The notes under the pieces: model-generated | What the model saw: the letters and a program-made list of their open reading frames with translations, nothing else | Told to the model about the DNA's origin: nothing | The model's database searches: none | Made by a program: the position numbers and the translations under genes | NCBI GenBank assembly: GCA_964387275.1 | Contig: CAYLVW010000002.1 | Coordinates: 127,286-191,285, forward strand | Length of the DNA: 64,000 nucleotides | DNA from: an uncultured Candidatus Saccharibacteria bacterium | Lineage (GTDB): Bacteria; Patescibacteriota; WWE3; UBA101185; UBA10185 | Direction: 5' to 3' | Part shown: one piece after another, positions 14,991 to 57,949 of the stretch | How positions within the stretch are numbered: the first letter of the stretch is position 1 | Layout: each line of letters starts with the position of its first letter

Positions 14991-15016
14991 CTTTGTTGGT
15001 AATTTGTTAGTAACTT

Positions 15017-16543: not shown

Positions 16544-16601
16544 AATGCTATTATTTATTGTTGCAGCAACGTTTAAATAGAGTCTGTTATCTGGATCAAA
16601 A

Positions 16602-20099: not shown

Positions 20100-20105
20100 A
20101 TCTAA

Positions 20106-31347: not shown

Positions 31348-32194
31348 TTTTATCCAAGCAAGTTTTACGCACAGCTTTTTCTAATTCGGAAATTTTTTCT
31401 GCTAAGTATTCTAATTCTTCAAGGGTGATTTCGTAATCGTGTCTATATCTCGCATCAACATACGCTCTAACTAATTTATCAAAAACAACTCTATCTTCTT
31501 GAGACTTTACTCTGAAGATATTTTCTAAGCCTTTTATTTCTTGAATTACTAAAGATCTTAGCTTTTCTAAGTTGTGGGTTTTTGGTTTGTAGCCTGTAAA
31601 TACCAGCAAAGTAGCAACATACAGTGTTTCTGCAACTTGATGTAGATGAAAAGCCGCATTACTAAATTCTTTATCTTCAATGTTATGGTTGAAATCTTTT
31701 AAAAAGCTTTGCGATTTTTTGAACCAGAAATCAAAATCTCTTTTAGCATTTGCAGAAACCTCGGAAGCTGTGAGCTTTTTTGGCTCTGTTAACTTGTACT
31801 CGCCTGAGTCATATAACAAAAGTCCTTCGTTTTTTATATCAATATAGAAATAGTTTCCTTCCTTGAGCTTTTCATTTACAAAGTGGATAGTGTCTATTAC
31901 CAAACTGACCGGAGTTTTTATAGTTAGGGAGGTTTTAATTTTTTGCTCTATATCGTTCCACAGACCAAAATTCTTACTAATTTTTTCTCCTTTAACTACA
32001 ACTAATATATCGTAATCACTAATGTATTCATAAGTAATGTGACCTTCTTTGTACCTGTCAGAAACCCAATCACCTCTAGCATAGCTGCCGAAAAGTAATA
32101 TCAGTCCTACATCTGCAGAATCTCTAATTATATTAGTTATAAGCTTTAGTTCATCTTGTTTTTCTTTTGGCAAATATATGAGTTCTGTTTTCAT
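31325..32194 (-). CDS. Fused minimal nucleotidyltransferase (MNT) plus HEPN-domain protein (kanamycin-nucleotidyltransferase-like architecture)
   Basis: N-terminal LILLFGSYARGDW...DYDILVVV (GS...D.D NTase motif). C-terminal helical domain with FHLHQVAETL...PKTHNLEKL (HEPN-like THxL motif). Confidence 0.65.
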   Translation of the reverse strand: MKTELIYLPKEKQDELKLITNIIRDSADVGLILLFGSYARGDWVSDRYKEGHITYEYISDYDILVVVKGEKISKNFGLWNDIEQKIKTSLTIKTPVSLVIDTIHFVNEKLKEGNYFYIDIKNEGLLLYDSGEYKLTEPKKLTASEVSANAKRDFDFWFKKSQSFLKDFNHNIEDKEFSNAAFHLHQVAETLYVATLLVFTGYKPKTHNLEKLRSLVIQEIKGLENIFRVKSQEDRVVFDKLVRAYVDARYRHDYEITLEELEYLAEKISELEKAVRKTCLDKITSLDSK

Positions 32195-35552: not shown

Positions 35553-35665
35553 ATTTTCTCCTTGAGAGGTTTATACACCAAAAGATCTTCAGAAGTCAAC
35601 CTATAGGATTTGATATGAAAATGCCGATTGAGAAACTTAAAGTTTTCCAATCGGCAGGCTTTTGC

Positions 35666-35923
35666 CTAACGCTCTCTAATACTAATCCCAACCCAAAGCA
35701 GGAAAAACAAAAGAATAAAGTTTCTGGTCATCCCGGCAAGCCAGTACCCATTAGCCACTTCCCAAGACAAATAGTGTTGGGTAGTGAAGAAGTTAACCCA
35801 GGTAAATTGAGCAGTAGCAACCCATGGATTAAACAACAGATCAACGTAAGCTGCTACTGTTGCTAAGATACTAACGAGGACAGATACTATTAAAGCTTTA
35901 ATTGCATTGGATTTGATTCCCAT
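35666..35923 (-). CDS. Hypothetical small membrane protein (2 TM)
   Basis: 85-aa ORF with two hydrophobic helices. Confidence 0.3.
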   Translation of the reverse strand: MGIKSNAIKALIVSVLVSILATVAAYVDLLFNPWVATAQFTWVNFFTTQHYLSWEVANGYWLAGMTRNFILLFFLLWVGISIRER

Positions 35924-36009
35924 CTTTTACAGCCTCTTTCTCCAGGTTTTGTTTCCTTTTGGGCGTATGATACGAGCTTTTTTGTTGTTACGCAATCTAG
36001 GAGATATTA

Positions 36010-36558
36010 CTATACTAAGAGTATTCCACGAAATCCTCGCGCAGCATAATAGGAGGATGCTCCATTGTGGTATACAAAAATACTGTTGTATCTACGATCT
36101 GCAAACAAAGCCCCTCCGAGATCTCTTATAGTTTTAGGAGTGGCTATCCAACTTGATGTTTTAGTGTCAAACTCTCCTAGTGTCTGCAGATGTCTGTATT
36201 GAGACTCTGTAAGAATCTCAATACCTATTGTGCCTGCTACTTCCAGGGCGCTGCCTGAAGGTTTTGCTTCTTTTCTGTCGTCTAGTGATTTTTGGTCGTA
36301 ACATAAGCTTCTTCTACCACTAGGGCTTTCAGAAGAGCAATCACAGTAGATAAACTTCTTTTTTTCTTGATCCCAACCTATCACATCTGGTTCACCTCCA
36401 GTTTCTTCCATTTTTATTAATATTTCTATAGAGTGTTTATTACCCTCTAAGGCCTTAAGTATGTCTAGCCATTTTATACTTTTGTGCCTGTCTACATTTT
36501 TTTCAAAACGTTTTTGTAGTATCTCTATTTGTTTTTCTATCTGTGATTTATTAAGCAT
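36010..36558 (-). CDS. Conserved hypothetical protein, DUF4256-like
   Basis: 182 aa. The motif block GGEPDVIGWD...FIYCDCSSESPSGRRSLCYD...SWIATPKTIRDLGGALF...YHNGASSYYAARGFRG resembles a conserved domain of unknown function, recalled from memory. Confidence 0.35.
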   Translation of the reverse strand: MLNKSQIEKQIEILQKRFEKNVDRHKSIKWLDILKALEGNKHSIEILIKMEETGGEPDVIGWDQEKKKFIYCDCSSESPSGRRSLCYDQKSLDDRKEAKPSGSALEVAGTIGIEILTESQYRHLQTLGEFDTKTSSWIATPKTIRDLGGALFADRRYNSIFVYHNGASSYYAARGFRGILLV

Positions 36559-36656
36559 ACGGAGATTATATAAGATTTATTACCAAATAAAAAAAATCTC
36601 ACAGTAGTTTCAGGAAGTTTTGACTTCTCAGAACCTGACTGTGAGAACCATATTTT

Positions 36657-37031
36657 TTACGACGCCATTTGTTTCATAAGATTAAGAAGAAAATGAGCGG
36701 CTACAACCCCCGCAATTACGCCAAACGGTGTTAGCATTACCGTAATTATCGAAATACTGATAAAATCGATAAAGCTATAATTTTTCGTATAAGCCTCCAT
36801 AAACGCCGGATCCTCTCTACGCAGTAATTGTTCAACCCTATCTTCTTCCACTCTATCGTCAAGATCCACCTTAGCAAATACCCTTGCTCGCAGTAACTGG
36901 TATTTATTACTCATGTTGGCCCAGAAATAGTATCTATAGATTGGAACTAAAGTTAGACCTACAGTCCAAGCCATAAGAAATCCCAAAAAAGCCATAAGAG
37001 CATAGATAATAGTTTCAATATGTTCGATCAT
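36657..37031 (-). CDS. Hypothetical membrane protein (2-3 TM)
   Basis: 124-aa ORF; hydrophobic N- and C-termini with a charged middle. Confidence 0.35.
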   Translation of the reverse strand: MIEHIETIIYALMAFLGFLMAWTVGLTLVPIYRYYFWANMSNKYQLLRARVFAKVDLDDRVEEDRVEQLLRREDPAFMEAYTKNYSFIDFISISIITVMLTPFGVIAGVVAAHFLLNLMKQMAS

Positions 37032-37049
37032 CTCTTTCTCCCTGTTTTT

Positions 37050-37451
37050 CTAAGCTTTTTTGTATAGCATTGTCACTGCTACATGGTATCCTGCAGCAGT
37101 AGCTTTTCTTTCACGTTTTAGATCATCAGCATCCTCAGGAGATTTAATAATCTCAAAAGCCACCACTTGACTTAATAGCTCTTCAGGTATTTGGGCAATT
37201 ACTTCTGCTATTGATGGCTTAAAGAGGCCATAGAAGCCGAATGTGTGGTACGTAGTTATAGATTGTAGCTCAGCAATTCCCTCAACAGCTTCATTAGTAG
37301 CTGTTGGGTCCCATATATATGAGACATTTCTAGGATCCACAGATCTAATATAGCGTTTTCCTAGGTCTGGAAAGGTTACAATAGGTCTGATTCTAGCGCA
37401 TAGATCAGCCAACTTCCTATTTGAGATAGCAGGAATCCAACTTTTTCCCAT
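37050..37451 (-). CDS. Hypothetical protein
   Basis: 133-aa ORF, 18 nt upstream of the next gene. Confidence 0.35.
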   Translation of the reverse strand: MGKSWIPAISNRKLADLCARIRPIVTFPDLGKRYIRSVDPRNVSYIWDPTATNEAVEGIAELQSITTYHTFGFYGLFKPSIAEVIAQIPEELLSQVVAFEIIKSPEDADDLKRERKATAAGYHVAVTMLYKKA

Positions 37452-37590
37452 CTTGTTCCTCCTCCTAAAGACTTGCTATAGGACTATATAGTATTTACGC
37501 TGTAAATTCAACCTGCCTCAGAAAAGTACCTATTGCGTTCGGCTGGGTGCGTTTTAGTACTATATTTGTGACTATTGTTCTGTAGTGGCT

Positions 37591-37950
37591 TTATATTAAA
37601 CCGGTAAAAAGTAAAATAAGTGCACACAGTGTGACTATTGCAAATACACCTACAGTTCTTCCGAAAAGACTAAGAGCCTCTTTCTTTTTGCCCTCAATAA
37701 ATAATTGAAGCGGTTGATAGAAGAACAAAAAAGCCATAACCGATACTGAAAGGGTAAGTACTGATAAGAAAACTATTGGAGCGAAAAAGGTGTCTGGTTT
37801 GTTTCTAAGTGGTGCTGTAGCAAAGCTCATTGTTGAGACAACGAGAACTATGTAAGCCGAGGCGGAGACAGCATTTATTATAGGGTTTTTAGACATACTC
37901 TTATTGTACCAGAGTGTTTTTGTGTTTGATTTTTGGTAGGATTTGGCCAC
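37591..37950 (-). CDS. Hypothetical membrane protein (3 TM)
   Basis: 119-aa hydrophobic ORF. Confidence 0.35.
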   Translation of the reverse strand: MAKSYQKSNTKTLWYNKSMSKNPIINAVSASAYIVLVVSTMSFATAPLRNKPDTFFAPIVFLSVLTLSVSVMAFLFFYQPLQLFIEGKKKEALSLFGRTVGVFAIVTLCALILLFTGLI

Positions 37951-38122
37951 ACGTTCTTGCCTACTGGCAATATGCGTGACTTCGGATTGTCACAACCGCG
38001 GTTTTATCTTTTGAATACCCAAGTAATATAAAAATACCCGCAATTCTTGCGGACTTACAAAGATTTTTATGGCTCTACATAGCAGAAGATGTTAGAAAGT
38101 GTTTTGTTTTACAGTAAGGATT

Positions 38123-38485
38123 TTAAAGCTTTGATAGTTCTTTTATCACGTCACTCACAAGAATATAAGACATTGATACAGCTAGAGCTGCTGTAACATA
38201 GGTTAACAGTTGTCTAACTTTTCCTCTAATAAATTTTGGCAGTAAATTTTGATATTTAAGTGTCCACAAGTTTTGCTGAATAAAATTATATAGAAAAAAC
38301 CAAGAGATAAAATTAACAAGACCTAAGTATCGGTTGGTAGTTTTGGTTGTAATGAACTCTAAACTGCCGAGTATCAATAACCACTCCATGTACTCAAACC
38401 ACACCTTTGCATATTTGCCATATTTGAAATATTCCTTAGCCTCAGTTTGCCAAGAATATTCTGAAGTATCTTTTATCTTTTGCAC
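38123..38485 (-). CDS. Hypothetical membrane protein (2-3 TM)
   Basis: 120-aa ORF, 62 nt downstream of the KAP NTPase gene on the same strand. Confidence 0.35.
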   Translation of the reverse strand: MQKIKDTSEYSWQTEAKEYFKYGKYAKVWFEYMEWLLILGSLEFITTKTTNRYLGLVNFISWFFLYNFIQQNLWTLKYQNLLPKFIRGKVRQLLTYVTAALAVSMSYILVSDVIKELSKL

Positions 38486-38546
38486 GTTTTAATTATAACT
38501 TAGTAAATTGAGCTCAGGACGGTGAATACTCAAGTATTCGTTACAG

Positions 38547-41474
38547 TTAGCTCTCCGTTATCTCTTCAGGTTGGTTTGTTAAAACTCTAATTTGCGATTC
38601 ATTGAATAATGATGATGCTTTGTCAGTATATTTTTCTATAACATCGGCACCAATTCCTGATTCTTTTAGGCTTAATAAATGTTGATAAAATCTCTCAACT
38701 AGTTGTGGATCATCTGCTCCCTTAGTTTTATGGGACATTTCTAGTAATTTCAACTTATGCTCTCCTGATATCTGTTCTTTTTTATCATAAAAGCTAGTCA
38801 GTATTTGTTTGTTATTATTAAATTTATAGTTTCTATCCTCAGCAATAATTATGGCGTTATCTAAGTGATTAGAACTTATAAGCCTTTCTATAATGATGTC
38901 TTTAATGGCTTCATCAAAATGTTCCTTCATGAGATTGTAGATTTCCAAAGACCTTATCGAGGCACTCAAAACATTTTCACTGTTTTTTGTAACGACTTCT
39001 TTTCTCTCTTCCTCATCGAATAAAGCATAGCCTGTTGCATAGTCTGCATCAGAAGCAAAATTAGTAAATATGGATGCCTCTAATTCGTTTGCTCTTGAAT
39101 TATGCGGATAGAGAGATATTAGTCTTGCTAATCGGTAGATATCTTTTTTTTCATTCCAAACACCTGCTTGTTTATAAAATGTGCCTATTGTTAAGGTTAA
39201 GTTTTCCATTTGCGGTTGTAGTACCACATCTAAAGTTGGGACAATCCCTTTAAAGTTCTTAAGTATCTCATATGCAAATACGATCAACAGTTTCCTTTGC
39301 TCTCTCATAGGGTTGCTAGATTCTGTAGAAAAGATTTCATCAATCTTCCTAATAAATGTTTCAATAGATTTTTTATCAAAAATCTCTAAGAACTTTTTGA
39401 TGATTTGTATCTTATTTTCGAGTAAGGATATATCATCTATGTCGGTGTTTTTAATCCCTGCAATGAATTTAATCAATGTGTCCTCGAGTATAAACTCTCT
39501 CCTATCGGAATTATCTGCAAAGATTTCTAAGTACTCAGTTTGATAGTAAGCATTATTCAGTAAGTTCCTGATTTCACTTAAATATAGTTTAAAATAATCT
39601 TTGTTTGTGGAAATATATTGGAATATGTCTACAGCATTATCTTTCGTTATAGTAGGTTCCTTATCAGGTTCTTTTGCTCTGAGTATGTCAACATATTTTG
39701 CTGCTAAAAGGTTGTTTTGGTTTGGATTAATATTATTTTTTATTGTATCGACCGTTGGTTTGATTCTAAAGTTAGGATATGTGGCTAGATTATCTAGAGC
39801 CTTAATTATGGCGTGGTAAAGCTCATTAGCTAAACGATTGTTAACATTAACAGTTTCATCTCTGTAAAAAATTTCAATACAGCACGAACTTACAGGTTCA
39901 TATCGAGTCTTTTCACCCGCTGTTCTGTTTTGCTTAACATATTCGGCAGCCAATTCAAGGAAAATGTCCAAATTCTCCTCTTTTACAAAAGATTTGAATA
40001 ACTTCTCAGCACTTTCAACATCTCTATCTTGTGCAAAGGTTATAAATTGATCCCATCCATTTAGTCTTTTTTCTTCTGCAGATTGCTTAAACGTAATAAA
40101 CAATACTAGGTTTGAGCCATACGGAACTATAGACTCAGTATCTACAAGAAACTTTTCGCCTCTTTCATTAATTATTCCGTTATCATTTTTTGCATCTTCA
40201 ACAAAACTATTCCATGAGGTGGCTTCATATAATGCTTTCTCTTTTAACTTTGCATAAGTTGCAGGGAACTTCTCTTTGATAACTAACAGTTTAGCAATGA
40301 AAGCAATATTATTTTGATCTGCGATAAAGTTAAGGTCTTCAATATTGCCTTTTGCTATTCTGCTTTGCACAAGTAGTAGTTCTGCAATTAAGTTGTTTAT
40401 AAACTGTTTTATTTCCCTAGGGCTATTTCTGTAGGAGCTTGTAATAACTGATACTAGTTGAGAGTTGTTTTGAAGTAGTGGGAATTTTGAATTCTCAATT
40501 TGTTTTGTAACAAAATGGTCAAATTCCAAACTGTATGGTTTAGGAATTCTCAAAGTCAAATTAAAGAATTTTTTCAGATACTCGTTTGCATAGTCGTTTT
40601 GTTTTGTAGAATCTTTGTTATTTCCAAGGTAAACCTGTTCTATGTGTTCCTTTATAGCCTCTTCATCACAAGGTATTAGAAATACACAGTTATTTTCTCC
40701 TAAAAAAGTTTTTATCGTTGTAAGAAATGCTGACGCTTTGTGGTGAGCAGTTCTGTCTAGGTTGTCTAGTATAAATAATATCTTCTTATTTCGTAGCCTT
40801 TTATCTGAAATCAATTTTTTGAATTCCTTTTCGAATTCATCGGGCAATGATAGTTTGTCTTTTGTTAGAGTAATTTCATCCACTACCAAAACTTTATGTG
40901 GTAAGTCAATTAATATTGGTTTGAGTAAATGTAACTCTAGTACAGATAGTGCCCCCGAAATTAGTGTTATTAGTCCCCAATTATCAGCATTTTTAAAAAA
41001 GTAATTAAAAATTAATATTACAATTACTAGAGTTAGAACAAAAAATGGTGTGAGTAAGTATAGGCTTCTTACTAACTCATGTGAACGGAACTTGATCCCG
41101 ATATCCTCTTTTTTCTCGATTGAATAGGCAAATGCTTTACTAAGTTCTTTGGCTTTTTTTTCTCCCAAAAGTTCAGTAGCCGCTGTTAGTAAAAATTGTC
41201 TTCTTAAGGAGTCATTCTCATACTTCCATACGTCAAAGTACACGACTTTTATATCTGAATTCCTTAGCTTATCCTCGATAAGCTTGGCTATTATTGTTTT
41301 GCCTGTACCCCATTTACTAAATAATCCTATGGTAAATGGAGGCTTTGCTGAAGATACTATTTTCACTAATGTATCTGCTACTTCCTCATGCCCAAAATCT
41401 ATATCTGTTAATGAAGGATCATCGGGTAATAGTTCAAAGTCTATTGTATTCTCATTGCTGTTGGATTTTTTCAT
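38547..41474 (-). CDS. KAP-family P-loop NTPase with TM helices inserted in the NTPase domain, plus a ~700-aa C-terminal helical extension
   Basis: Walker A GLFSKWGTGKT; KAP-signature YFDVWKYEND; two hydrophobic helices (LYLLTPFFVLTLVIVILIF..., LITLISGALSVL) between Walker A and B; Walker B ILFILDNLDR followed by a conserved Cys-containing segment. Confidence 0.8.
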   Translation of the reverse strand: MKKSNSNENTIDFELLPDDPSLTDIDFGHEEVADTLVKIVSSAKPPFTIGLFSKWGTGKTIIAKLIEDKLRNSDIKVVYFDVWKYENDSLRRQFLLTAATELLGEKKAKELSKAFAYSIEKKEDIGIKFRSHELVRSLYLLTPFFVLTLVIVILIFNYFFKNADNWGLITLISGALSVLELHLLKPILIDLPHKVLVVDEITLTKDKLSLPDEFEKEFKKLISDKRLRNKKILFILDNLDRTAHHKASAFLTTIKTFLGENNCVFLIPCDEEAIKEHIEQVYLGNNKDSTKQNDYANEYLKKFFNLTLRIPKPYSLEFDHFVTKQIENSKFPLLQNNSQLVSVITSSYRNSPREIKQFINNLIAELLLVQSRIAKGNIEDLNFIADQNNIAFIAKLLVIKEKFPATYAKLKEKALYEATSWNSFVEDAKNDNGIINERGEKFLVDTESIVPYGSNLVLFITFKQSAEEKRLNGWDQFITFAQDRDVESAEKLFKSFVKEENLDIFLELAAEYVKQNRTAGEKTRYEPVSSCCIEIFYRDETVNVNNRLANELYHAIIKALDNLATYPNFRIKPTVDTIKNNINPNQNNLLAAKYVDILRAKEPDKEPTITKDNAVDIFQYISTNKDYFKLYLSEIRNLLNNAYYQTEYLEIFADNSDRREFILEDTLIKFIAGIKNTDIDDISLLENKIQIIKKFLEIFDKKSIETFIRKIDEIFSTESSNPMREQRKLLIVFAYEILKNFKGIVPTLDVVLQPQMENLTLTIGTFYKQAGVWNEKKDIYRLARLISLYPHNSRANELEASIFTNFASDADYATGYALFDEEERKEVVTKNSENVLSASIRSLEIYNLMKEHFDEAIKDIIIERLISSNHLDNAIIIAEDRNYKFNNNKQILTSFYDKKEQISGEHKLKLLEMSHKTKGADDPQLVERFYQHLLSLKESGIGADVIEKYTDKASSLFNESQIRVLTNQPEEITES

Positions 41475-41567
41475 ATTAATATTAATTTCTATTCATACTA
41501 ACCGATATTATAACTCCGTTAGGTATTTTTTACTTATAAATGGCAGTTTTGGCAGGTTTACGTCTGT

Positions 41568-41984
41568 CTATAGTAATGAGGACAGTCTTCTTAGATCCTT
41601 AAGGCTTTCACAAAAAGCTCCATAGCGTTTTTCGAGCTTTGGATCGTCTTCAATAATGCTAGAAATTTCTGATGCTAATCTATCTCGCCATTTCTTTAAT
41701 TCATTCCAATCTTTCGTATCGAAATGATCTGCAACTCTCCAATCAGTAGAATTCCCAAACATATTTAGAAGAAAGTTAAAACTTCTTTCAGCAGTACGCA
41801 ATTCGGCTAACTGCTTTGCATCCAAGTGTTTTTGACTAGTTATTTCTTCTAACAAATCATCTAGAAGTTCAATATAATTAAGCAAAAATTGTTTGTATGC
41901 TATTGGGTTTTTATACATTCTAAATTCATTATAGTACAAGCATATCTGCTGTCTATCTAGGCTATAATGTAAGTATGTCAACAA
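41568..41984 (-). CDS. Hypothetical protein upstream of the KAP NTPase gene
   Basis: 138-aa ORF, 93 nt upstream of the KAP gene; diverges from the terminase-small-like gene. Confidence 0.35.
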   Translation of the reverse strand: MLTYLHYSLDRQQICLYYNEFRMYKNPIAYKQFLLNYIELLDDLLEEITSQKHLDAKQLAELRTAERSFNFLLNMFGNSTDWRVADHFDTKDWNELKKWRDRLASEISSIIEDDPKLEKRYGAFCESLKDLRRLSSLL

Positions 41985-42424
41985 TAAGACAAAGGAAAGC
42001 CATTCAAAAATTATCTGAAAACCTACGAAATGTAGATAATAAACCTATTTCTATGGGAAAAATTTTACGAGAGTCAGGTTATTCAGAGGCAGTATCAAAG
42101 AAACCGAAGCTAGTTACAGAAAGCTTAGGGTGGAAAGACCTCATAGAGTCCTACCTTCCTGACGAAAAACTGTTACAAAGCCTTGTAGAGATGCTAAACA
42201 TGCCTTCTATTACTACTGTCCGTAACGACAAAGGTAAAGTGATTAGAGAAGTCACTGAAACAAATGGGTCAATCAAGGCTAGAGGGTTGGATATGATTTT
42301 GAAAGTAAAAGGTAAGTATGTAGCGGAAAAGGTAATAACAGAAGATCCTTATGCAGACATGAGTGACTCTGAAATAGAGGCTAAGATCAACAGATTGCAT
42401 CAGGAACGCAACTCATTTAATTAG
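41975..42424 (+). CDS. Phage terminase small-subunit-like HTH protein
   Basis: N-terminus RQRKAIQKLSENLRNVDNKPISMGKILRESGYSEAVSKKP follows the terminase-small pattern (...kq..f...y.......a...AGYS..tA...). Confidence 0.35.
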   Translation: MSTIRQRKAIQKLSENLRNVDNKPISMGKILRESGYSEAVSKKPKLVTESLGWKDLIESYLPDEKLLQSLVEMLNMPSITTVRNDKGKVIREVTETNGSIKARGLDMILKVKGKYVAEKVITEDPYADMSDSEIEAKINRLHQERNSFN

Positions 42425-42964
42425 GTTATAGTTCTTGTACACATTTTCCCAATAGCCTGAAAGTTTATTTAGAAACATGGAAACTATGTCTGTGGCAATT
42501 GGATTTATAAAAAATGGCTTATCCTTTGTTCCCTTTATCAGTATTTTATCAATGTTTTTACCTAGCCATTGATTGAGAAGTATTATTGCAACTCCCTCGA
42601 GTCCTTTTTGGCGGTTACCACCGTTTTCATATGCTTCCAAGTAATCTATAACTTCTTTTACTGCATAATTCTCAGTACTCTCGGTTCTTAGACCACTCAT
42701 TATATGAAGGGCTAGTCTTTTACTTTGCTCCTGAGGAAAAAAGCTTTCTACTGAGGCTATTCCTAAAGCAATAAGAGCAAAGCTTAAGTTTAAAGCACAA
42801 AGGTTATCATCAAGGAAAACAAAGTTGTTGTTGTAAAAATTATTTTGAAAGTGTTTCTTTATTTCTAGCCATGCTTTGTCACTTCCTTTTACACAATCTA
42901 ATACAAAAGAAGCGGACGCTACTTTTTCATCTAGATTTTTCTTAGATACCAAAAAATTAAGCAT
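42413..42964 (-). CDS. Hypothetical protein
   Basis: 183-aa ORF. Confidence 0.35.
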   Translation of the reverse strand: MLNFLVSKKNLDEKVASASFVLDCVKGSDKAWLEIKKHFQNNFYNNNFVFLDDNLCALNLSFALIALGIASVESFFPQEQSKRLALHIMSGLRTESTENYAVKEVIDYLEAYENGGNRQKGLEGVAIILLNQWLGKNIDKILIKGTKDKPFFINPIATDIVSMFLNKLSGYWENVYKNYNLIK

Positions 42965-43192
42965 ATTTACATTTCCATAGTTAGGGGATTAGCAAAACAA
43001 TAAGAGCTCCCCACTAGTCTGAACCCTTTCGGGCTCACATAATCGTTTCCGACTATGACCTGATCAAGTAACTAAATGGAGAGCTTCCATTTCTTGATCA
43101 GGTTTTATCGCCATGCCTTAGACGAATCTAAAGTTTAGGCAACATTAAGTTGTGTGCTTATTTTACTACAGAATGCTTTAGAATAAAGAAGT

Positions 43193-43846
43193 ATGAAGGA
43201 TAGATATGGAAAAATGATGAAAATAGTATATACGCCTGATTTCAAGAAATGGCTTGATAAATGGAAAGCTTTTGTATCTAGTAAAAACATTCCTAGCAAA
43301 AAAGATTTACCTAACAAGTGCGAAAGTGAGTTATTAACTTTGCTTAAATCTCACAATATCGGCTATTCATGGAAAGACCCGCTGATAAATTCCCTGTTTC
43401 TTGAATTACTTGATTTACCGTTGGATGATGGTATTCACATAGAAGTAGGCGGTACGGCGATTACAGAAGTGTCTTTAACAGCTAAAACTTTTGTGGTTGA
43501 TGAGGGTAGAAAATTGGAAGGTGTGCGTATTGTTATTACTAAGGATATATCCCCTCATGAACTTAGTAGTTTCATTAAAAAATACCAAACGTTGTTACAT
43601 GGACTTTATAAGCACTTAGGATTACCTGCTTCTGTGAAAGAGGGTTATGATGTGAACATCGTTAATGCCATAGTGACTATGCGGGATAAAAAGAAAATGA
43701 AATTCAAAGATATTGCTACGTTTCTATACGACGCATATTCAGAGCAGGAAAAACCCAAACAATCCCTCGAAAGATTTAATGAAACTAATGTTCAGAAAAT
43801 ATACAGCGATTTTAAGAAGTCCCTACCAAAAACCAACAAAAAGTGA
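43193..43846 (+). CDS. Hypothetical protein
   Basis: 217-aa ORF. Confidence 0.4.
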   Translation: MKDRYGKMMKIVYTPDFKKWLDKWKAFVSSKNIPSKKDLPNKCESELLTLLKSHNIGYSWKDPLINSLFLELLDLPLDDGIHIEVGGTAITEVSLTAKTFVVDEGRKLEGVRIVITKDISPHELSSFIKKYQTLLHGLYKHLGLPASVKEGYDVNIVNAIVTMRDKKKMKFKDIATFLYDAYSEQEKPKQSLERFNETNVQKIYSDFKKSLPKTNKK

Positions 43847-43898
43847 ACTGCTTTTTGTTGTGTAGTTAACAACATCTTGCACATAACATTGCATCAAT

Positions 43899-44162
43899 AT
43901 GAAAGATGCAATGGAAATCACACAGAAAAATATTCCCGTTTCAGACTTAGGTTTAGTAGCTGCCCTGTCCTTGTCATTCCAATATGAAGCTTATAGGCAA
44001 CCAAACGACGCAAAAGTTTATTTCCTATTTGAAAATGTACTCTCGGTAAGGAAAGCTATCGAGGACTATTGGGAAGGAAATCTTATAGTTAGTGCTAGGG
44101 CTTATTCGGAACAGCTTAAAAACACTAAATCTAAGATTTATGGTGGAGCATGGAGAAACTAA
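43899..44162 (+). CDS. Hypothetical small protein
   Basis: 87-aa ORF. Confidence 0.3.
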   Translation: MKDAMEITQKNIPVSDLGLVAALSLSFQYEAYRQPNDAKVYFLFENVLSVRKAIEDYWEGNLIVSARAYSEQLKNTKSKIYGGAWRN

Positions 44163-44294
44163 GCAAAAATGCAATAGTTTCATATAGATCCATATATCAA
44201 AAAAAGTATGGTGTGTTACTACCTTTTGAAGTAGCGAGAACACAAGCTGAAAATTTATTAACCTTTCTATTTCTTAAAGCCAAGTTGAATGTAA

Positions 44295-44768
44295 ATGAAT
44301 ATGTACGAGAACCTAAAAACACCCAATAACATTAAAGAATACCCATTTACACCTATACCGCATGTGATTTTGGATGTACTTATAGCAGATAAGAGGTTTG
44401 ATAAAAATTGCCAAAAGGTCTTATTACTTATAATTCGGCTGACGTACGGTATTGACCTCAAAAAAAAGAGAAGGGGTAGGTGGGCAGATATACGTAAAAG
44501 CCAATTTAGAGCCTGTGGTATTTCCTCAACGCATATAGATCCAATTTTAGAAAAACTTCTCGCTATGGAGGTGATTAGAAAAGAACCGCCAAATTATTAT
44601 TCGATAAATGTAGATACCTTTGAAAGTTCTTTAGAGGGCTATCTGCTGTCAGATTTGTTGTGTCTGCATATTAGTCAACCGAAAGCAACTGCGGATACAT
44701 CTAGTGAAAGGCTTATAAACTTGAGTTCCCAAAATGGTATCTATTTAGAGAAGTCAGATGTGGGATAA
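44295..44768 (+). CDS. Phage replication-organiser-like protein (lambda RepO N-terminal-like winged helix)
   Basis: KVLLLIIRLTYGIDLKKKRRGRWADIRKSQFRACGISSTHIDPILEKLLAMEVIRKE parallels the Phage_rep_O N-terminal pattern (vLlaIirkTyG....w..is.sq.ae.tGls...v.ra...L...gli). Confidence 0.45.
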   Translation: MNMYENLKTPNNIKEYPFTPIPHVILDVLIADKRFDKNCQKVLLLIIRLTYGIDLKKKRRGRWADIRKSQFRACGISSTHIDPILEKLLAMEVIRKEPPNYYSINVDTFESSLEGYLLSDLLCLHISQPKATADTSSERLINLSSQNGIYLEKSDVG

Positions 44769-44907
44769 ATGTAATATTGTCAGTCAGAAATAGGTGTCGA
44801 TCCTGTTACTAAAGAAAGAAATAAATAAAAAAATAAATAAATCAAAAAAAAGTGGAAACAGTCCAACAATATTTGAACTTTTGTATTCTTTAGTATTTAA
44901 TTAATCT

Positions 44908-44985
44908 GATAACCACAATACATTAAAGTCAGGAATGACCGTTCTGTCATGCCTTTAATGGTGTGGTTATCAACAGAACGGTCAT
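44908..44985. repeat. Nested inverted repeats directly upstream of the serine recombinase start
   Basis: gataaccaca (44908-44917) / tgtggttatc (44962-44971); cattaaag / ctttaatg; aatgaccgttctg (44934-44946) / cagaacggtcatt (44973-44985). Confidence 0.6.
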
Positions 44986-46624
44986 TTTTATGCAAAGATC
45001 TAACAACAAGTATTTCTTATATGTGCGAAAGTCGTCAGAGTCCGAAGATAAACAAGTTCTTTCTATCGATTCTCAAATAAATGAACTAACAGAATTAGCT
45101 AGAAGACTTGGTTTGGATATTGTTGAAATCTTTAAGGAAACCAAGTCAGCCAAAGCCCCCGGAAGACCCGTATTTAATGAAATGATAGAAAGACTTAAAA
45201 GAGAGCATGTAGCAGGGATTCTATGTTGGAAAGTGGATAGGTTAGCGCGAAATCCTGTAGATGGAGGAACAATCATTTGGGCTATTAAGGAAGATGGTAT
45301 TTCTATAGTCTCATCATCTCAAACCTATACCCCCGACTCTGATACAAGCCTTTTGATGTATGTAGAGTTTGGCATGGCTCAAAAGTATGTCGATGATTTA
45401 TCTAAAAATGTCAAAAGAGGATTGAAGATGAAACTAGAACTTGGATGGTATCCTTTTGTCGCTCCCCAAGGCTATCTTAACACTCCCGATAGGCAAAAAG
45501 GATACAAAATTATAGTTAATGATTCTGAACGCTTTCACTTGGTAAGAAAGATGTGGGATTTAATTCTCACGGGGAGTTATACAGTGCCTCAAATACTTTT
45601 TATCGCAAACAACGAGTGGGGGTATAGAAGCATCAAGCGAAGGAGGAGTGGCGGAAATCCAATTTCTAGAAGCTGTCTTTACGAAGTTTTTACTAACCCT
45701 TTCTATTATGGTGAATTTGAAGTGAATGGAACTTTTTACAAAGGTAGTCACAGTGCAATGATAAGTTATGAGGAGTTTGAAAAGGTTCAAGTGCTCTTGG
45801 GACGTAAGGGAAAACCACGTCCGCAAAAGCACCTTTCGGCTTTTACGGGGTTTTTAAGATGCAGTGAATGTAACTGTTTTGTAACAGCAACTCACAAAGC
45901 TAAATTTTATGAGAAGACCAAAAATTTAGCTCACTACGATTACTACCATTGCACAAGAAAGAACAAATCTGTGAAATGCACTCAACCAACTGTAAAAGAG
46001 TCTGATATGGATAACCAAATGTTTGAATTACTTATGAGTGTCAGGGTTGACCCTGCATTCAAAGATTGGGCACTTACATACCTCTCAGAAATATTCAAAT
46101 ATGAAAATAAGAATAATGAGCAAGTACATGAAAACTTATATAAAGAGGAAAAAGCCATCAAATTTAGGTTAAATACTCTGTTTGAAATGCGTTTGAATGG
46201 AGAGGTTACGGAAGATGAATACAAAGAAAAGAAAGTCGAACTAGAGGCGACTCTCAAGTTTTGTAGGGAGAAAATAGGTGATTCTAACCATCAATTTGAC
46301 TCTTGGTTAAAGAAAGTAGAGGAAGCATTTAATACTGCTGAAAGAATACAAAAGGTGGTCGACGATAGTGGTAATTTGAGTCTGTCAAAAACAAACCATA
46401 CAAAGCTTTTAGAAATCAAAGAACTAATCCAACGAACAGGCTCGAACTTCTTCTTAAACTATGGGAAAGTGCAGTATGAACTGAAAAAACCCTTTTATGT
46501 ATTCAAAGATGTTTCAGATGGAAAGTATACTGATACAAGTCGGCTAGAACCTTTAGAATATGCTGATATGGTAATGAAAAGTGGACTTGAAAAACCTGAA
46601 AGTCTTTCATGGCTCCTCCGGTAG
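44963..46624 (+). CDS. Large serine recombinase (resolvase catalytic domain, recombinase domain and zinc-ribbon domain); probable true start at the ATG at 44990
   Basis: YVRKSSESEDKQ (catalytic Ser region), ...ILCWKVDRLARN, Cys cluster CSECNC...YYHCTRK, coiled-coil C-terminus; 553 aa. Confidence 0.85.
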   Translation: MVINRTVIFMQRSNNKYFLYVRKSSESEDKQVLSIDSQINELTELARRLGLDIVEIFKETKSAKAPGRPVFNEMIERLKREHVAGILCWKVDRLARNPVDGGTIIWAIKEDGISIVSSSQTYTPDSDTSLLMYVEFGMAQKYVDDLSKNVKRGLKMKLELGWYPFVAPQGYLNTPDRQKGYKIIVNDSERFHLVRKMWDLILTGSYTVPQILFIANNEWGYRSIKRRRSGGNPISRSCLYEVFTNPFYYGEFEVNGTFYKGSHSAMISYEEFEKVQVLLGRKGKPRPQKHLSAFTGFLRCSECNCFVTATHKAKFYEKTKNLAHYDYYHCTRKNKSVKCTQPTVKESDMDNQMFELLMSVRVDPAFKDWALTYLSEIFKYENKNNEQVHENLYKEEKAIKFRLNTLFEMRLNGEVTEDEYKEKKVELEATLKFCREKIGDSNHQFDSWLKKVEEAFNTAERIQKVVDDSGNLSLSKTNHTKLLEIKELIQRTGSNFFLNYGKVQYELKKPFYVFKDVSDGKYTDTSRLEPLEYADMVMKSGLEKPESLSWLLR

Positions 46625-46684
46625 GATTCGAACCTACAACCTCGAAGTTAACAGCTTCTTGCTCTACCATTGAGCTACAGAGGA
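46610..46684 (-). tRNA. tRNA-Asn (anticodon GUU)
   Basis: Reverse complement tcctctgtagctcaatggtagagcaagaagctgttaacttcgaggttgtaggttcgaatcctaccggaggagcca. Acceptor 7 bp (one G-U), D-arm gctc/gagc, anticodon loop cuGUUaa, T-arm gtagg-ttcgaat-cctac, encoded CCA. Confidence 0.8.
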
Positions 46685-46812
46685 TTAGTGACTCTAAATA
46701 TTGTTTTAAAGCAACGCTATGTTACCAAAAAGACTTTGTCGGATCAATTAGTTTGCACCACAAATTTTTAGCTTTTCTGCCTTTTAAGCATAAATAAGAC
46801 CTATAGTTTGCA

Positions 46813-47295
46813 TTGTTGACTACGTTTGGTTATAATCATTCCAGCAATCTTTTCAAGGAGAGAGAGATCGTGCCAAAGTTTTTGAAGGCTGCTGGGATGG
46901 CTTTATTTTTACTGATTTGTGGTATCACTTATTCTGAAGGTTTTGAACTGTCTCTTAGTAATCCGGAGTCAGTTAATTTAAACGCTTTGATTATTCTGAA
47001 TATCTTAGTGATATCTCTTATGCTTTTGGGATCTTACGCCTATGGAATCAAAATACGAGTCTTGTTATATGTGATAGCTATTTCCTTTGGCGTGCTTTTT
47101 GGTACTTCTTTTATTGGGCAGTTTTATGGCATGTATGTAAACTCTAATGTAAGGGTTTTGATAATCGAGGGCGGTTATTTGGGGTATTTTTTGGCTATGT
47201 TTAGTACTTTATTGCTATACATTCTTCCTTATTTAGTTGCTGTACTAAGTGTGTTTGCTGTTTACGATAGTACTTATAGGGCTGTTTCTGTTTAA
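46813..47295 (+). CDS. Hypothetical membrane protein (4-5 TM)
   Basis: 160-aa hydrophobic ORF. Confidence 0.4.
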   Translation: MLTTFGYNHSSNLFKEREIVPKFLKAAGMALFLLICGITYSEGFELSLSNPESVNLNALIILNILVISLMLLGSYAYGIKIRVLLYVIAISFGVLFGTSFIGQFYGMYVNSNVRVLIIEGGYLGYFLAMFSTLLLYILPYLVAVLSVFAVYDSTYRAVSV

Positions 47296-48227
47296 AGGTT
47301 TTGGGTCTGTTGCACTTCTGTGTTTTTGTGTGTCAGACCCTTTTTGTTTAGTTTGTATATTACAAAAATAGCAAGACCAATATTTATTACAAATAAGATA
47401 CTTTGGTAGTTTGGGACGTTTGGCTTAAGTATGATAATGAAACTTTCTAGAATATACGGAAGAGTTGTTGTATGGAGAACTATCTTTAAAGTGTCCATGA
47501 ATGAGTAACCAGTCTTAATAACCGAAGAGATTATGAAGACTACCACCGCACTAAACAAAGCATCTAGAAATTTTATAGATATATAAAAAACAAAACTTAT
47601 TCCAAGTACAACGAACAAACCTACAGTAGGTATGATGTAAGTTAATTTTTTTAGATTTTGGATTTTTTCTTCTACTTTATTTTTGTCCAACATAAAATCA
47701 GGAACATTCCTTGTTGGTCTGGTTTGTATTTTTGATGGGTCTTTCACAAGAATATTGGTTGAGTTTATTAGAATCATGGTATTGTACTTTTCCATGTCAT
47801 CAATAGTGCCTTTCTTATCAAACACTATTAAGTTATCAGGGAATTTCGTATTTTGCTCAGTCTCATACGACAGACCAGATTCTTTTATATAATCAGGCGT
47901 TTTTATTATGTAGGGGTCCTCCATGTTTGTTGTGATAACCCCATCCACAGATGTTATTACCAGGCTATCCGGATAAAATTTTGACACTTCCTGTAATGTG
48001 AGGTTAATTTTGTCGGTTATTCTATTTGCATCAAATGCCATGAAAGACCCTGCATATATGAATGCAATAATCATGCTTAATCCAACAAAATATTTATATG
48101 AGAAGCTAAATTTTGTTTCTAATATCTCGCTATAGTAGTCTACTGATACTAAGCTTTTTTTGAACGAATAAAGTAATGCCTTTATGTATTTCATATATGG
48201 TATGAGAGTCCATGTGCTATAAGGCAC
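47292..48227 (-). CDS. Hypothetical membrane protein with a large extracytoplasmic domain between TM helices (DUF1189-like topology)
   Basis: 311 aa: N-terminal TM, ~150-aa soluble domain, C-terminal TM bundle. Confidence 0.35.
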   Translation of the reverse strand: MPYSTWTLIPYMKYIKALLYSFKKSLVSVDYYSEILETKFSFSYKYFVGLSMIIAFIYAGSFMAFDANRITDKINLTLQEVSKFYPDSLVITSVDGVITTNMEDPYIIKTPDYIKESGLSYETEQNTKFPDNLIVFDKKGTIDDMEKYNTMILINSTNILVKDPSKIQTRPTRNVPDFMLDKNKVEEKIQNLKKLTYIIPTVGLFVVLGISFVFYISIKFLDALFSAVVVFIISSVIKTGYSFMDTLKIVLHTTTLPYILESFIIILKPNVPNYQSILFVINIGLAIFVIYKLNKKGLTHKNTEVQQTQNL

Positions 48228-48384
48228 ATATCTTCTCCAATTTCTTTGCAGTGGTATCTAAGCTTACCTCCAAAATTGTATAACTGCCTGTTTAACTTTA
48301 TTATATCCTATAAACTGTAGGGCGCAGGCAATAGGTTGATTGTAACATGTCTGATATAATTTTTTTGTTGATGTTAAGGATTTT

Positions 48385-51300
48385 ATGCTGAACTTTCGTT
48401 TGAAGTTCATACCACTCGCTGTGTTTATAATAACGGCTTTTTCAGTCGTGTTTCCCCGTGTAACTTTCGCTGCTTACGATGTTGCATGCGTTGCTGAAGG
48501 GGTTGCTGACTATATGGATGGAGTTCTAAGTCGTGCCACTCCTGGTAAGTTTAAAAACATTAGGTTTTTGACTCCAGCATTTAATATGACAGAGCCTCAG
48601 TTTGAAGAATTAGTCAGCGAGATTTCTGCTCTGTCCGGCACTTTTGCCAGATCAGATGTGGTAGTTAGTGGTAATGCTTACAATGTGGATGGGGCAAGTG
48701 TAGTTGATTGGATGGAAAGGGTACGTTCTACAGAAATTGCTAATAGGCCTGTTATCCTTACTGAGACCGGTTGGTATCCGCATGCAGCAGGCCAGGGTTA
48801 CACAAATGAGCGCGGTGAATCCTTACGTGATGCTTTGAACCAGGCTCGTAGCTCTCAAGGCCCTCTCGTTGGTGCTTTAATTTTTAACGGCTTTGGTACA
48901 AATCCTGATATTAATTTTGCAGGTCAGGTAATGAGTAATGAACAATTCAATGTTGTTTGTAACAGCGGAGCATGTGGTTTTATTGGCGTAAATTCTGCTG
49001 CAGGATTATTTGATAATTCTAATAATGATAGAGCTGCCGGCCTTGGAATGAAGATGACACTGGGGATTATAAATAATGATCCATCAGGGGTTGCCAGTGG
49101 TTCTAATAACGCATTAGCTAAAGGTATTACCCCAGTTCTTAGAATCGGTGTTGGAGATTCTAGCGGTGGTTTCGACACACCAGCAGCTCTATATAGTTTT
49201 ATGGAAGGATTGGACCCATTGTTAACCGGTGTTGTTTACATCATAGTAGGTCCTAACGAGCCTAATGCAGAGGGTTGGGCTGATCCTGACGGCCCTGGTA
49301 CTTGTGACAGGGACCAGCCAGATACCGGAGGCACTGCCGGATTTGTAACTGTAAGAGGAATGTTAAGAGCCATGAAAGGAACCCGAACTTTAAATGACGG
49401 TACTACCGCTCCTGTGACAAATCTTGGTGTTAAGAATGCGGCAATAAAAATTTATGAAGGTGTTCCTGATAGTCAAACTGGGAAGAGAAGGGGGGATTTA
49501 GTGAATCCTCCTGATGTTGCGACTTCCGGGGTAATCAATTTGACCCGAACTGATGAAGACGGATTTTTTGAGATACAAATGAGGCGTGGAAGTGGTAGAA
49601 ATAGAATGAATTACTTAGTAGTTTTTTGTCAAAATACAGGCACCCCTTCAGATAATATAACTACAATTTATGCATTAGATTCTACAAAAAATCTCGACGG
49701 ACTTATGCTTTATGAAGATTGTCCTCAGGATGTAACTACCCCAGATCCTCCCGATGAACTTCCTTACGTGTCACAAACAGATTTCTTATCTTGTGATCTC
49801 CCTAGTGTCGGAGATGAATTGTACAATTTATACAAAGGCTTTAACCAAGTTGCAAAAGGTTTGAGAACTTTTATTAATCTTGACGGTGTTACTGATGGTT
49901 GGTGGGTTGGTAAGGATTTGGATACTGTTCCAAATCCAAATGATGGTGTTCGTCAAGATGAAGAACTTACGCATGCCGAGATTGATGGGAGATATAACAC
50001 AAATCAATTTGCTTTTGATGTGAACTCCATATATGGGGCGTTAACATGTTTGACTGTGGGTTGTTTAGATGGTGATCAAGTGTTGAAAAGAGGTAATGGT
50101 GGTGTATTGCCATCATGTGATGTTTACAGAACTGGAAACGAAGCTTTAAACGCAAGGAATATGTATGGATTTGCAGAAAGTTTAGCTTCTCCAAGTTTTG
50201 GTATTCAAAGTGACGATGTAAAAAGATACATTTCTGTACGTCTTGACGGTACTTTAAGAAATAGAGAGATTTGTAATATTGATGGCCATAATTATACTTT
50301 TAGAGAATTTGCTATACCAACACAGTGGAATCAGGATGAAATTGCAGCTGCTATAGGAGATCATGTGTGTAGTGAGGGTGAACTTTTTTGTTTACCAGAA
50401 GAATACTTCCCTTGGAATAAATTAATCAATTTTTATAACGAATCTTTAGAGGCAGATACCAGGACAACAACCGAGAGGGATTCCTTTAACTCAGTTGAAA
50501 GGGATCGCGTTTTTGATGAAGCTAACAAGGGTTTGGCTCTAAGCTGTGACGGTCCTACTACGGATGAGGGTGCTTGTGCTACACCACCAAAAGCTTTTGC
50601 AGGCAGGGATGCTGTAGTATTACCAAAAGGCAATTTAACTTCCCCAATTGCGGCTGCAAATTCTGTTACCAGAGGAGCAAAAACTCCCGGAGTTGCTTCT
50701 CCCCTGGAGCTTATTTATGACCCAAAAACTGATGAAGATGAACAAAGCCTGGCAGAGGGAAAAATTACAAAGAAATTTACTACAGTTAGCTCTAGCAGTA
50801 GGGGTATCCTACGAATTGGTAAACCAAAATCTCTTTGTATTTGTCCTTGGCCCCTTAGAATCTTGGATTTATGCGGTAGTGCTACAAACGATCAACTTAT
50901 GAACTTTTTTGATACTAGTGTTACAGGGTATCTAGACACTTCTGCAAATTCATTAAGAACCTTTTTATACGGTGCTGGCTATTCTTATGTAACTAAGAAT
51001 ACCCTTGTCTCCGTAGGTACCGACAGTTTGGGTCAGTTTTTTGGTTACAACGTAGATATACTTACCGCAATTGTGCAGCAGATTTACGACAATATAATTG
51101 CACCATGGTTTGTGGGTTCTGACAGGGTGCCTTATCAGTATGGGGCTCAGTGTCAGGGTCAGTGGGTAGCAGCTTCCGAAGAGCAGGCAGCTGCATGCGC
51201 CCCTAATTGGCCTGATGACCCTGCTTGTATAACTCAAAATGGCTGCGGTGGTTGTAAATGTGTTGGTTCAAGTGCTACAACTTGCTCACAGTGGCAAGTA

Positions 51301-57873: not shown

Positions 57874-57949
57874 GGGTGTTTAGCTCAGCTGGTAGAGCAG
57901 GCGTCTTATACACGCCCGGTCCTTGGTTCGAGTCCAAGAACACCCACCA
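57874..57949 (+). tRNA. tRNA-Ile with anticodon UAU (tRNA-Ile2 type)
   Basis: gggtgtttagctcagctggtagagcaggcgtcttatacacgcccggtccttggttcgagtccaagaacacccacca. 7-bp acceptor, D-loop with GG, anticodon stem ggcgt/acgcc, loop cuUAUac, T-arm cttgg-ttcgagt-ccaag, encoded CCA. Confidence 0.8.

Follow-up and report, generated by a model that had tools for sequence, protein, structure and literature searches.

An integrative element very probably inserted by its own large serine integrase at the 3' tip of a tRNA-Asn gene in a Candidatus Saccharibacteria genome

Towards the right of a 64,000-nt stretch of DNA from an uncultured Candidatus Saccharibacteria bacterium (the window, whose positions are used throughout unless another locus is named), a gene for a large serine recombinase (LSR) runs into the 3' end of an intact, convergent tRNA-Asn gene. 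Upstream of it on the same side lie a winged-helix protein related to phage RepO, a DUF5659 protein, several small open reading frames (ORFs), a structured RNA of the LOOT family and a large KAP-family NTPase. The original prediction, made from the sequence alone, took the region at 35-52 kb for a degraded prophage or integrative island. Our analysis retains an integrated mobile element with its recombinase at one end beside the tRNA, and shortens and recasts the rest: 38070..46615 is very probably an intact integrative element of about 8.5 kb, of a plasmid-like or defence-island type, inserted by its own LSR at the 3' extremity of the tRNA-Asn gene.

Compared loci carry L-numbers as labels. 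The genome set held 80 loci with LSR homologues, 75 of whose LSR genes were evaluable, and an independent metagenome set held a further 80 loci with 61 evaluable homologues; the genome and metagenome scans each returned more than 570 relatives. Domains and families were assigned from Pfam and PHROG profile matches, tRNAs from ARAGORN and Rfam, and defence models from PADLOC. Two relatives of the host region, L090 and L089, were found through a homologue of the flanking DUF1189 gene (83% amino-acid identity), and L091, from assembly GCA_964606045.1, carries a sister of the element.

The LSR gene (44990..46624, forward strand) encodes 544 amino acids from an ATG, which is also the start in public gene calls. 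The 553-residue version originally predicted begins at an alternative GTG at 44963, and an exact look-up of it returned no record. The three domains proposed for it were all found and accepted, as Resolvase (PF00239, 5.3e-23), Recombinase (PF07508, 8.2e-7) and Zn_ribbon_recom (PF13408, 9.3e-9), the last two scoring above the Pfam cut-offs, and the protein matches PHROG 95 'integrase' at 9.4e-65. Residues R13, S15, R59, R84 and R87, among them the catalytic R13 and S15, are unvarying in 29 homologues including the window LSR. The catalytic set appears intact and the protein is predicted to be active in attP x attB integration. Large serine integrases catalyse recombination between attP and attB, and excision requires a recombination directionality factor. 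None was recognised for the window element.

The LSR profile aligns to SPbeta SprA (LSR residues 9-479, SprA residues 16-511) and to the C-terminal domain of A118 Int over residues 210-460, and solved LSRs are too dissimilar for single-sequence detection beyond the catalytic domain of the window LSR. Since the known fold of LSRs stops near residue 480 of 544, the part that overlaps the attachment (att) site is a C-terminal extension. Homologues run to more than 4000, with thousands at 36-50% identity. The enzyme falls among integrases (PHROG 95, SPbeta SprA and A118 Int) and not among resolvases or invertases, and this, together with the differences between related genomes described below, favours mobility.

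The LSR stop codon, TAG at 46622-46624, falls 15 nt within the 3' terminus of the tRNA-Asn(GTT) gene (46610..46684, reverse strand; Rfam 68 bits), an overlap that was part of the original prediction and is borne out by ARAGORN, Rfam and the sequence itself. The junction reads tca TGG CTC CTC CGG TAG, and the tRNA-encoded CCA serves as a Trp codon. The protein ends in SWLLR, and P0125, the LSR of L091, ends in SWLPRVDSNHRP; the codons past the shared SW, with the stop, fall within or beyond the crossover core and are antisense to the host tRNA.

This overlap is no chance event, because an LSR stop falls inside a convergent tRNA in 53 of the 75 genome-set genes, with overlaps of 11-102 nt, and in 37 of the 61 metagenome-set genes, while tRNAs cover 0.6% of the genome-set DNA. 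The target tRNAs of the genome set are led by Asn (18) and His (15), followed by Trp, Gln, Leu, Ser, Tyr, Ile(TAT), Asp, Glu and Lys; the metagenome set adds Ala, Val and Gly, and 17 anticodon types are hit altogether. Aligned homologues end in S-W-L-P-x-x-D-S-N-x-Q-P, which corresponds to a tRNA 3' end translated in antisense, TGG being the complement of CCA and GATTCGAAC that of the T-loop. The carriers, as labelled, are mostly metagenome-assembled genomes (MAGs) of Patescibacteria or the candidate phyla radiation (CPR), with Pacearchaeota also represented. Family members with no tRNA come largely from other phyla (Omnitrophota, Eisenbacteria, Zixiibacteriota, Bacteroidota and Ignavibacteriales).

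We tried several ways of finding the other end of the element. A boundary of the tyrosine-integrase type, marked by a duplicated tRNA 3' fragment, was dropped: no second copy of the 3' part of the tRNA-Asn (25-30 nt) was found anywhere in the window, and no tRNA 3' repeat lay within 10 kb in any of 54 integrated loci. The lack of a duplicated segment makes that boundary model inapplicable and favours a crossover at the tip of the tRNA. A generic repeat search returned only chance-level repeats. Gene content could not set the boundary either, because in a tblastn comparison of the element's ORFs with 80 loci DUF5659 alone recurred.

The ends were instead read from a comparison of four junctions, those of the window and those of L091. 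The hexamer TGGCTC is common to all four. To its left, the LSR-side junctions share a P arm (46585..46609, forward strand, inside the LSR coding sequence and ending at the core), which is the same in the window and L091 except for two substitutions, and the far junctions are unrelated host DNA. To its right, the far junctions share a P' arm (TGGCTCTACATAGCAGAAGATGTTAGAAAGTGTTTTGT, 38070..38107, forward strand), and the LSR-side junctions continue into the tRNA-Asn of the respective host (CTCCGGTAGG versus CCCCGGGTGG). The tails of the two LSRs diverge exactly past the core, each following the tRNA of its host. This pattern puts strand exchange within TGGCTC, and the crossover is accordingly read as lying inside the 6-bp core. 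The left copy (38070..38075, forward strand) joins the host B arm to the P' arm; the right copy (46610..46615, forward strand) is the reverse complement of the tRNA's 3'-terminal GAGCCA, with the 3' strand of the acceptor and the T-arm forming the B' arm.

As mapped from these junctions, the element is 38070..46615, with 8.54 kb between the two core copies. Its att sites are short, a 6-bp core with arms conserved over about 25-38 bp, and no longer repeat was found. It had been expected that boundaries could not be read from repeats; here a recognisable P' arm at the far end and the 6-bp core were enough to read them. Exchange at the very tip leaves the tRNA intact, with no duplicated fragment.

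Related host regions break at the same point. L090 (81% nucleotide identity) aligns to 48779..46610 and to 37931..35618, and has 457 bp with a HIT gene where the window has 8.7 kb. L089, an 86% nucleotide-identical relative, aligns from 58014 to exactly 46610 and then continues into a different element with a 25%-identical LSR. Both alignments break exactly at the tRNA 3' end (46610). The element of L089, at about 11577..17300, occupies the same tRNA-Asn; it carries DUF5659, HTH_36 and DUF6884, and its LSR, called as fragments, ends about 160 nt before the tRNA.

The sister element of L091 carries an LSR, P0125, from the same protein cluster of at least 90% identity as the window LSR. L091 6509..11628 corresponds to window 41578..46687 at 91.8% identity (the backbone, 5.1 kb), and L091 4072..4109 corresponds to window 38070..38107 at 94.7% (the 38-bp P' arm), the homology beginning exactly at TGG. 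The flanking SUF genes of the two hosts are only about 66% identical, whereas the element is 92-95% identical, which argues for recent transfer. Between P' arm and backbone, L091 has a 133-residue ORF and an ABC-ATPase/OLD-TOPRIM protein instead of the 120-residue ORF and KAP NTPase of the window. The tRNA-Asn site beside DUF1189 is polymorphic in presence as well as content, as the original prediction had expected of a mobile element: L090 has none, L089 another element and L091 the sister with other cargo. Synteny in L089, L090 and L091, whatever the element content, marks the gene for a 1348-residue protein, DUF1189 and the SUF genes as belonging to the host. The original prediction had counted the KAP NTPase and possibly the 1348-residue protein as cargo; the former lies inside the ends and is replaced by an OLD nuclease in the sister, and the latter belongs to the host side.

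Just outside the left end, in host DNA, lies an orphaned terminator-like hairpin, GTCCGCAAGAATTGCGGGT then ATTTTTATAT (38036..38054, reverse strand). It is on the strand of the tRNA and 16 nt away from the 38070 junction; one such site was found and 0.1 expected, and no terminator follows the tRNA on the LSR side at 46400..46609. The hairpin is probably the native terminator of the tRNA-Asn gene, stranded 8.5 kb away by the insertion. Since no terminator now follows the tRNA, read-through from it would run antisense into the integrase gene.

Many homologues have a strong, visually clear hairpin that runs into TTTTT directly 3' of the tRNA, antisense to the last 15 or so LSR codons (KAKTEAL.SVR..W) and 10-45 nt before the tRNA 3' end (L003, L008, L010, L016, L019, L022, L025, L031, L035, L061, L064, L074 and others). 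Under a loose rule it was scored in 38 of 54 loci versus 42 of 162 controls, and it is weak in the window. Elements of the family thus seem, from these counts, to bring a replacement tRNA terminator hidden in the integrase gene. As a feature of the window the hairpin was rejected, given the loose scoring and the lack of one here at 46400..46609.

The P' arm mimics a tRNA 3' end, with a T-loop-like GTTAGAA placed 5 bp further from the core. The window sequence at 38070 is TGGCTCTACATAGCAGAAGATGTTAGAAAGTG, that is TGGCT, 12 nt and then GAYGTTAGAA. This is the layout of the C-terminal coding end of homologues that do not adjoin a tRNA, such as L004 (TGGCTCCCCATCGTGGAAGACGTTAGAACC), where it encodes W-L-P-I-V-E-D-V-R-T. 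A loose composite test for such sites (core plus GTWMGRA) gave 9 hits versus 4-7 in controls and missed the true site of the window; it was replaced by an in-frame test for W-x5-[DE]VR[TK] in six frames, over 54 integrated loci with three control classes. This found nine hits upstream on the LSR strand, one upstream on the other strand and none downstream. Eight of the nine begin with the 3'-end bases of the locus's own tRNA (TGGCAGG for Trp, TGGGGT for His, TGGCGCGAC for Asp). The P' arms in about eight loci, 7.7-11.5 kb upstream, delimit elements of 7.7-11.5 kb. Counted from TGG, the motif starts at base 22 in P' (GTTAGAA) and at base 17 in the tRNA (ATTCGAA), with the same offset in about eight elements.

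Codon choice at the motif is skewed. Val is written GTT in 26 of 33 cases (29% in the same LSR genes at large), Arg as AGA or CGA in 25 of 33 (40%) and Thr as ACY in 27 of 33 (55%). The skew towards GTT-MGA-ACY points to a constraint on the DNA and not on the peptide alone.

With the crossover in TGGCTC, attP spans the 3' end of the integrase gene. Its P arm consists of the codons leading up to the conserved Trp codon (TGG, complementary to CCA), and the P' arm comes after it. The predicted attP is CCTGAAAGTCTTTCA/TGGCTC/TACATAGCAGAAGATGTTAGAAAG (junction GAAAGTCTTTCATGGCTCTACATAGCAG) and the predicted attB is GGACTTACAAAGATTTTTA/TGGCTC/CTCCGGTAGGATTCGAACC (junction AAGATTTTTATGGCTCCTCCGGTAGG). 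The integrase would read the acceptor and T-arm of the tRNA as its B' half-site, and the P' arm appears to hold the same GTTMGAAC-type motif (the GTTAGAAC motif) 5 bp further from the core.

Integration would thereby swap the C-terminal tail of the LSR, its last codons and stop coming from the tRNA DNA of the host. Joined to the LSR, the P' arm would encode SWL-YIAEDVRKCFVLQ and then a stop, and the excised form is predicted to carry an LSR ending in SWLYIAEDVRKCFVLQ (P and P' joined, ESLSWLYIAEDVRKCFVLQ). This predicted end fits the 'free' type of tail in the family, W-x5-[DE]-V-R-T-[FY].

The LSR gene contains another T-arm-like DNA motif (GGCTAGAACCT; 46535..46552, codons S-R-L-E-P), which is about 65 nt upstream of the core. 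It corresponds to the conserved 'RLEP' of the LSR tail and is beyond the reach of the mapped att site.

Tandem arrays occur in L012 (LSRs at 446..2077 and 9566..11062) and L076 (10001..11611 and 18506..20194), and probably in L039 and L050. Their upstream LSR has a free-type tail composed of its own P arm and the P' arm of the next element. Such a hybrid tail implies insertion into an already occupied site, which is unusual for serine integrases, and suggests that entry into occupied sites may occur with the tRNA half as the main determinant.

Next to targeted tRNAs there are strings of sequences resembling P' (GAYGTTMGAAC, the core being degenerate) in L009 (310-1500), L090 (about 2197-2225 and 2625-2657), L091 (about 359), L018 (5921) and L078 (6210 and 7919). 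They look like fossils of earlier insertions, akin to the arrays of tRNA fragments left by tyrosine-integrase islands.

Next to the P' arm, the element carries genes for a predicted membrane protein of 120 residues (38123..38485, reverse strand) that belongs to no family and lies in the segment replaced in L091, and for the KAP-family P-loop NTPase of 975 residues (38547..41474, reverse strand; Pfam KAP_NTPase 2.8e-31). The NTPase matches the PADLOC models PDC-S20 (1.5e-23), QatA (1.2e-21) and PifA (3.4e-8), and the ATPase-TOPRIM protein in the same slot of the sister matches the Old, AriA and GajA models. We infer that the slot carries exchangeable defence cargo, a KAP NTPase here and an OLD-type nuclease in the sister.

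The backbone begins with an ORF of 138 residues (41568..41984, reverse strand) that has no family hit and opens the segment shared with L091, where homology starts at 41578. The next ORF (41975..42424, forward strand; 149 residues with a helical N-terminus) had been called terminase-small-like. The label found backing neither in sequence nor in fold: there was no Pfam, PHROG or PDB match and only five unannotated homologues, and its AlphaFold model (mean predicted local distance difference test score 61) had no Foldseek match at E<=1e-3 and none in BFVD. An ORF of 183 residues (42413..42964, reverse strand), directly downstream of the LOOT RNA on the same strand, and one of 217 residues (43193..43846, forward strand) are both conserved in L091. 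The DUF5659 protein (43899..44162, forward strand; 87 residues) matches Pfam at 5.7e-6, above the cut-off; by tblastn DUF5659 lies upstream of the LSR in 17 other loci, and it also occurs in L089 and L091. A small ORF of 59 residues (44150..44329, forward strand) is conserved in the sister element.

The last gene before the LSR encodes the winged-helix protein of RepO-N type (44295..44768, forward strand; 157 residues), as originally predicted; it matches Phage_rep_O at 2.5e-9, above the cut-off, and PHROG 16826 'DnaD-like helicase loader' at 3.7e-9, and is a candidate replication initiator. The backbone, with this initiator, DUF5659, the LOOT RNA and small ORFs, may sustain an excised circle.

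In the window element, Pfam and PHROG matched no ORF to a capsid, portal, terminase, tail or lysis family, and its reported Pfam hits include no relaxase, coupling protein or type IV secretion gene. A Pfam scan of 76 non-LSR ORFs from eight delimited elements matched 46 families; among the 25 most frequent there are no virion or lysis genes and no relaxase, coupling protein or type IV secretion. The families include DNA methylases, ResIII, E1/E2/multiubiquitin, Prim-Pol, HTH_3, M78 peptidase, SocA/Panacea, HTH_17, HTH_36 and DUF5659, and the eight elements can also be summed up as carriers of restriction and toxin-antitoxin genes. The lack of virion genes argues that the element is not a prophage. 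It is probably, by its gene families, a small integrative and self-replicating element, with initiators of RepO or Prim-Pol type in the family and a defence slot beside P'.

The LOOT RNA (Rfam RF03000) lies at 43021..43141 on the reverse strand, in the intergenic gap between two diverging gene arms. It matches the full length of the model (positions 1-121) at 86.9 bits, against a gathering score of 46.4. Searches with Rfam and with a model built here (R1) found LOOT in 16 further genome loci (L003, L008, L013, L015, L020, L027, L035, L039, L044, L047, L049, L058, L062, L064, L069 and L076) and in 14 of a second set made up of metagenome loci, IMG/VR loci and L091 (L083, L085, L091, L100, L107, L119, L123, L136, L141, L143, L152, L154, L161 and L168). 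All 31 hits fall on the element side of an LSR, mostly on the strand opposite to it, 1.8-8.7 kb upstream and usually in the gap between two gene arms. LOOT is thus a recurrent part of these LSR elements. Two of the seven LSR relatives in IMG/VR carry it, and no downstream gene linked to LOOT was conserved across loci. The family has been described as a strongly covarying structured RNA (PMC7657543), and the literature searched gave neither a function nor a genetic context for it.

Other accounts of the locus have to be weighed with an intact integrative element. The degraded prophage of the original prediction, a former temperate phage that has lost its structural genes and become immobile, is now very improbable. 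Temperate phages often have a RepO-like domain and an LSR, two of the IMG/VR relatives carry LOOT, and the excised form that had been proposed as a check was seen neither in the contigs of the Joint Genome Institute (JGI) nor among 80 metagenome contigs. Remnants would hardly fit the consistent size class of 7.7-11.5 kb, an LSR intact in its catalytic residues or a 92-95% identical copy between host flanks of about 66% identity, and no virion or lysis family was found in this element or, among the families reported, in the seven others delimited, including the capsid, portal and terminase genes for which a search had been suggested. Viral contigs held only seven relatives among 2.9 million in IMG/VR, against the more than 570 in each of the other scans. 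A phage satellite of PICI-like kind, spreading in the capsids of a helper instead of as a plasmid-like circle, would share more with the locus: small size, an integrase, a replication initiator, small ORFs, no virion genes, the defence cargo typical of satellites and no conjugation genes. We nevertheless regard it as unlikely, as no gene for a small terminase, capsid remodelling or helper sensing was recognised, and the one ORF that had been called terminase-small-like has support from neither sequence nor fold.

The island might also be fixed, its LSR serving another role such as inversion or resolution and its tRNA overlap a relic. The missing excision product would agree with this, as would an integrated LSR that does not have its predicted native tail. 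We consider it quite unlikely, because a near-identical element occurs in a distant host with other cargo, the site is polymorphic among relatives, the LSR is conserved with a sister in the same cluster of at least 90% identity, and no inverted repeats suited to inversion were found. A coincidental LSR-tRNA overlap, or one produced by ORF calling, might be argued from its length in the window, just 15 nt, and has next to no probability in view of the overlap counts in both sets, the break in homology to relatives exactly at the tRNA 3' end, and the divergence of two same-cluster LSR tails exactly past the core.

An intact, mobile element inserted by its own LSR has several points to contend with. 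The predicted attP junction had no exact match in a pattern scan of JGI metagenome contigs, and none of the 80 metagenome loci was a circular contig. L090 is not a clean empty site: it has a P'-like scar and the HIT gene (2237..2614), and lacks window 37932..38069, the 138 bp that hold the orphan terminator. By this comparison the site in L090 is remodelled, not simply left empty. The crossover is placed to the 6-bp core and not to a single dinucleotide. In A118-type integrases (the 4KIS work) the zinc-ribbon motif reportedly lies 5 bp further out in attP than in attB; the offset of the P' motif appears to match this half-site rule for A118/LI integrases. The defence role of the cargo and RepO-like replication are readings from family matches. 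Homologues with free-type tails also occur in other phyla, in large contigs and without a tRNA close by, and the tail motif may accordingly be a protein feature as well.

A wider account is possible but rather doubtful as a whole. The clade would read one half-site, the acceptor and T-arm of a tRNA, and enter many tRNA tips, occupied ones included; the LSR tail would sense the integration state; and LOOT would be a functional part of a replication or control region. Reading of a single half-site would explain both the tandem arrays and the strings of P' scars. The LSR would carry the complete tail, W-x5-DVRTF, in the free state and a tRNA-encoded stub after integration, which might bias the direction of recombination without a classical control circuit.

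The window enzyme has the same domain set as the LSRs of phages and integrative and conjugative elements (SPbeta SprA, Listeria A118/LI Int, phiC31, Bxb1 and TP901-1), and its profile aligns to SprA and A118 Int. As with these enzymes, its att sites are short, share a small core and lack long direct repeats, and the outer motif is 5 bp further out in the attP arm than in the attB arm, as is reported for A118. It differs from them in targeting the 3' tip of a tRNA and not a protein-coding gene, in having attP inside its own 3' coding end, with a tail that varies with the integration state and a P' arm that mimics the T-arm, and in its carriers, elements of 8-12 kb without virion genes, mostly in CPR- and DPANN-type MAGs.

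The tRNA islands of tyrosine integrases (P4, P22 and pSAM2) share the choice of tRNA sites, an integrase gene by the tRNA-proximal junction, a functional tRNA and the carriage of cargo. The window enzyme, in contrast, is of the serine family, none of the 54 loci has a duplicated tRNA 3' end, and exchange falls in the last 6 nt instead of the anticodon or T loop. SCCmec, moved by CcrAB, is a serine-recombinase island at the 3' end of rlmH/orfX that keeps the gene active and can form tandem arrays. The elements described here likewise insert at the extreme 3' end of a conserved gene and form tandem arrays (L012 and L076), but their target is a tRNA, a single LSR replaces the CcrA/CcrB pair, and attP overlaps the recombinase gene. 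In the fusellovirus SSV1 (int) and mycobacteriophage BPs, the latter with integration-dependent immunity, attP lies inside a gene and integration alters the C-terminus of its product. Both use tyrosine integrases, with the SSV1 int gene split in two and the BPs repressor altered, whereas here the last 10-40 or so codons of a serine LSR are swapped for tRNA antisense sequence.

An LSR island is a known kind of element; the wider result here is a large clade of LSRs at tRNA tips, with attP inside the integrase's own gene and with carriage of LOOT. In the papers searched, whose coverage was incomplete, this LSR clade was not described. Insertion of large DNA relies mainly on serine integrases, which in nature usually target protein-coding genes. 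A large clade found in nature, acting at tRNA tips with a readable site logic (core GAGCCA, T-arm motif, an offset of +5 bp in attP and a tRNA left intact), would offer predictable landing sites in many organisms, including CPR/Patescibacteria and DPANN, for which we know of few genetic tools. The elements would also be a defined vehicle for swapping defence genes, such as the KAP NTPase and the OLD nuclease, between organisms with small genomes, give the orphan LOOT RNA its first genetic context, and be a natural example of an integrase protein whose own end is rewritten by integration.

Two further features of the window lie outside the element. A fused nucleotidyltransferase-HEPN protein (Polbeta/NTP_transf_2 plus HEPN; 31325..32194, reverse strand), toxin-antitoxin- or defence-like, is encoded between a transketolase/PfkB block and the element, among unannotated neighbours. 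A tRNA-Ile with the anticodon TAT, uncommon in bacteria, lies at 57874..57949 on the forward strand and is also present in L015, L025 and L089; in two loci this tRNA is itself targeted by the LSR family.

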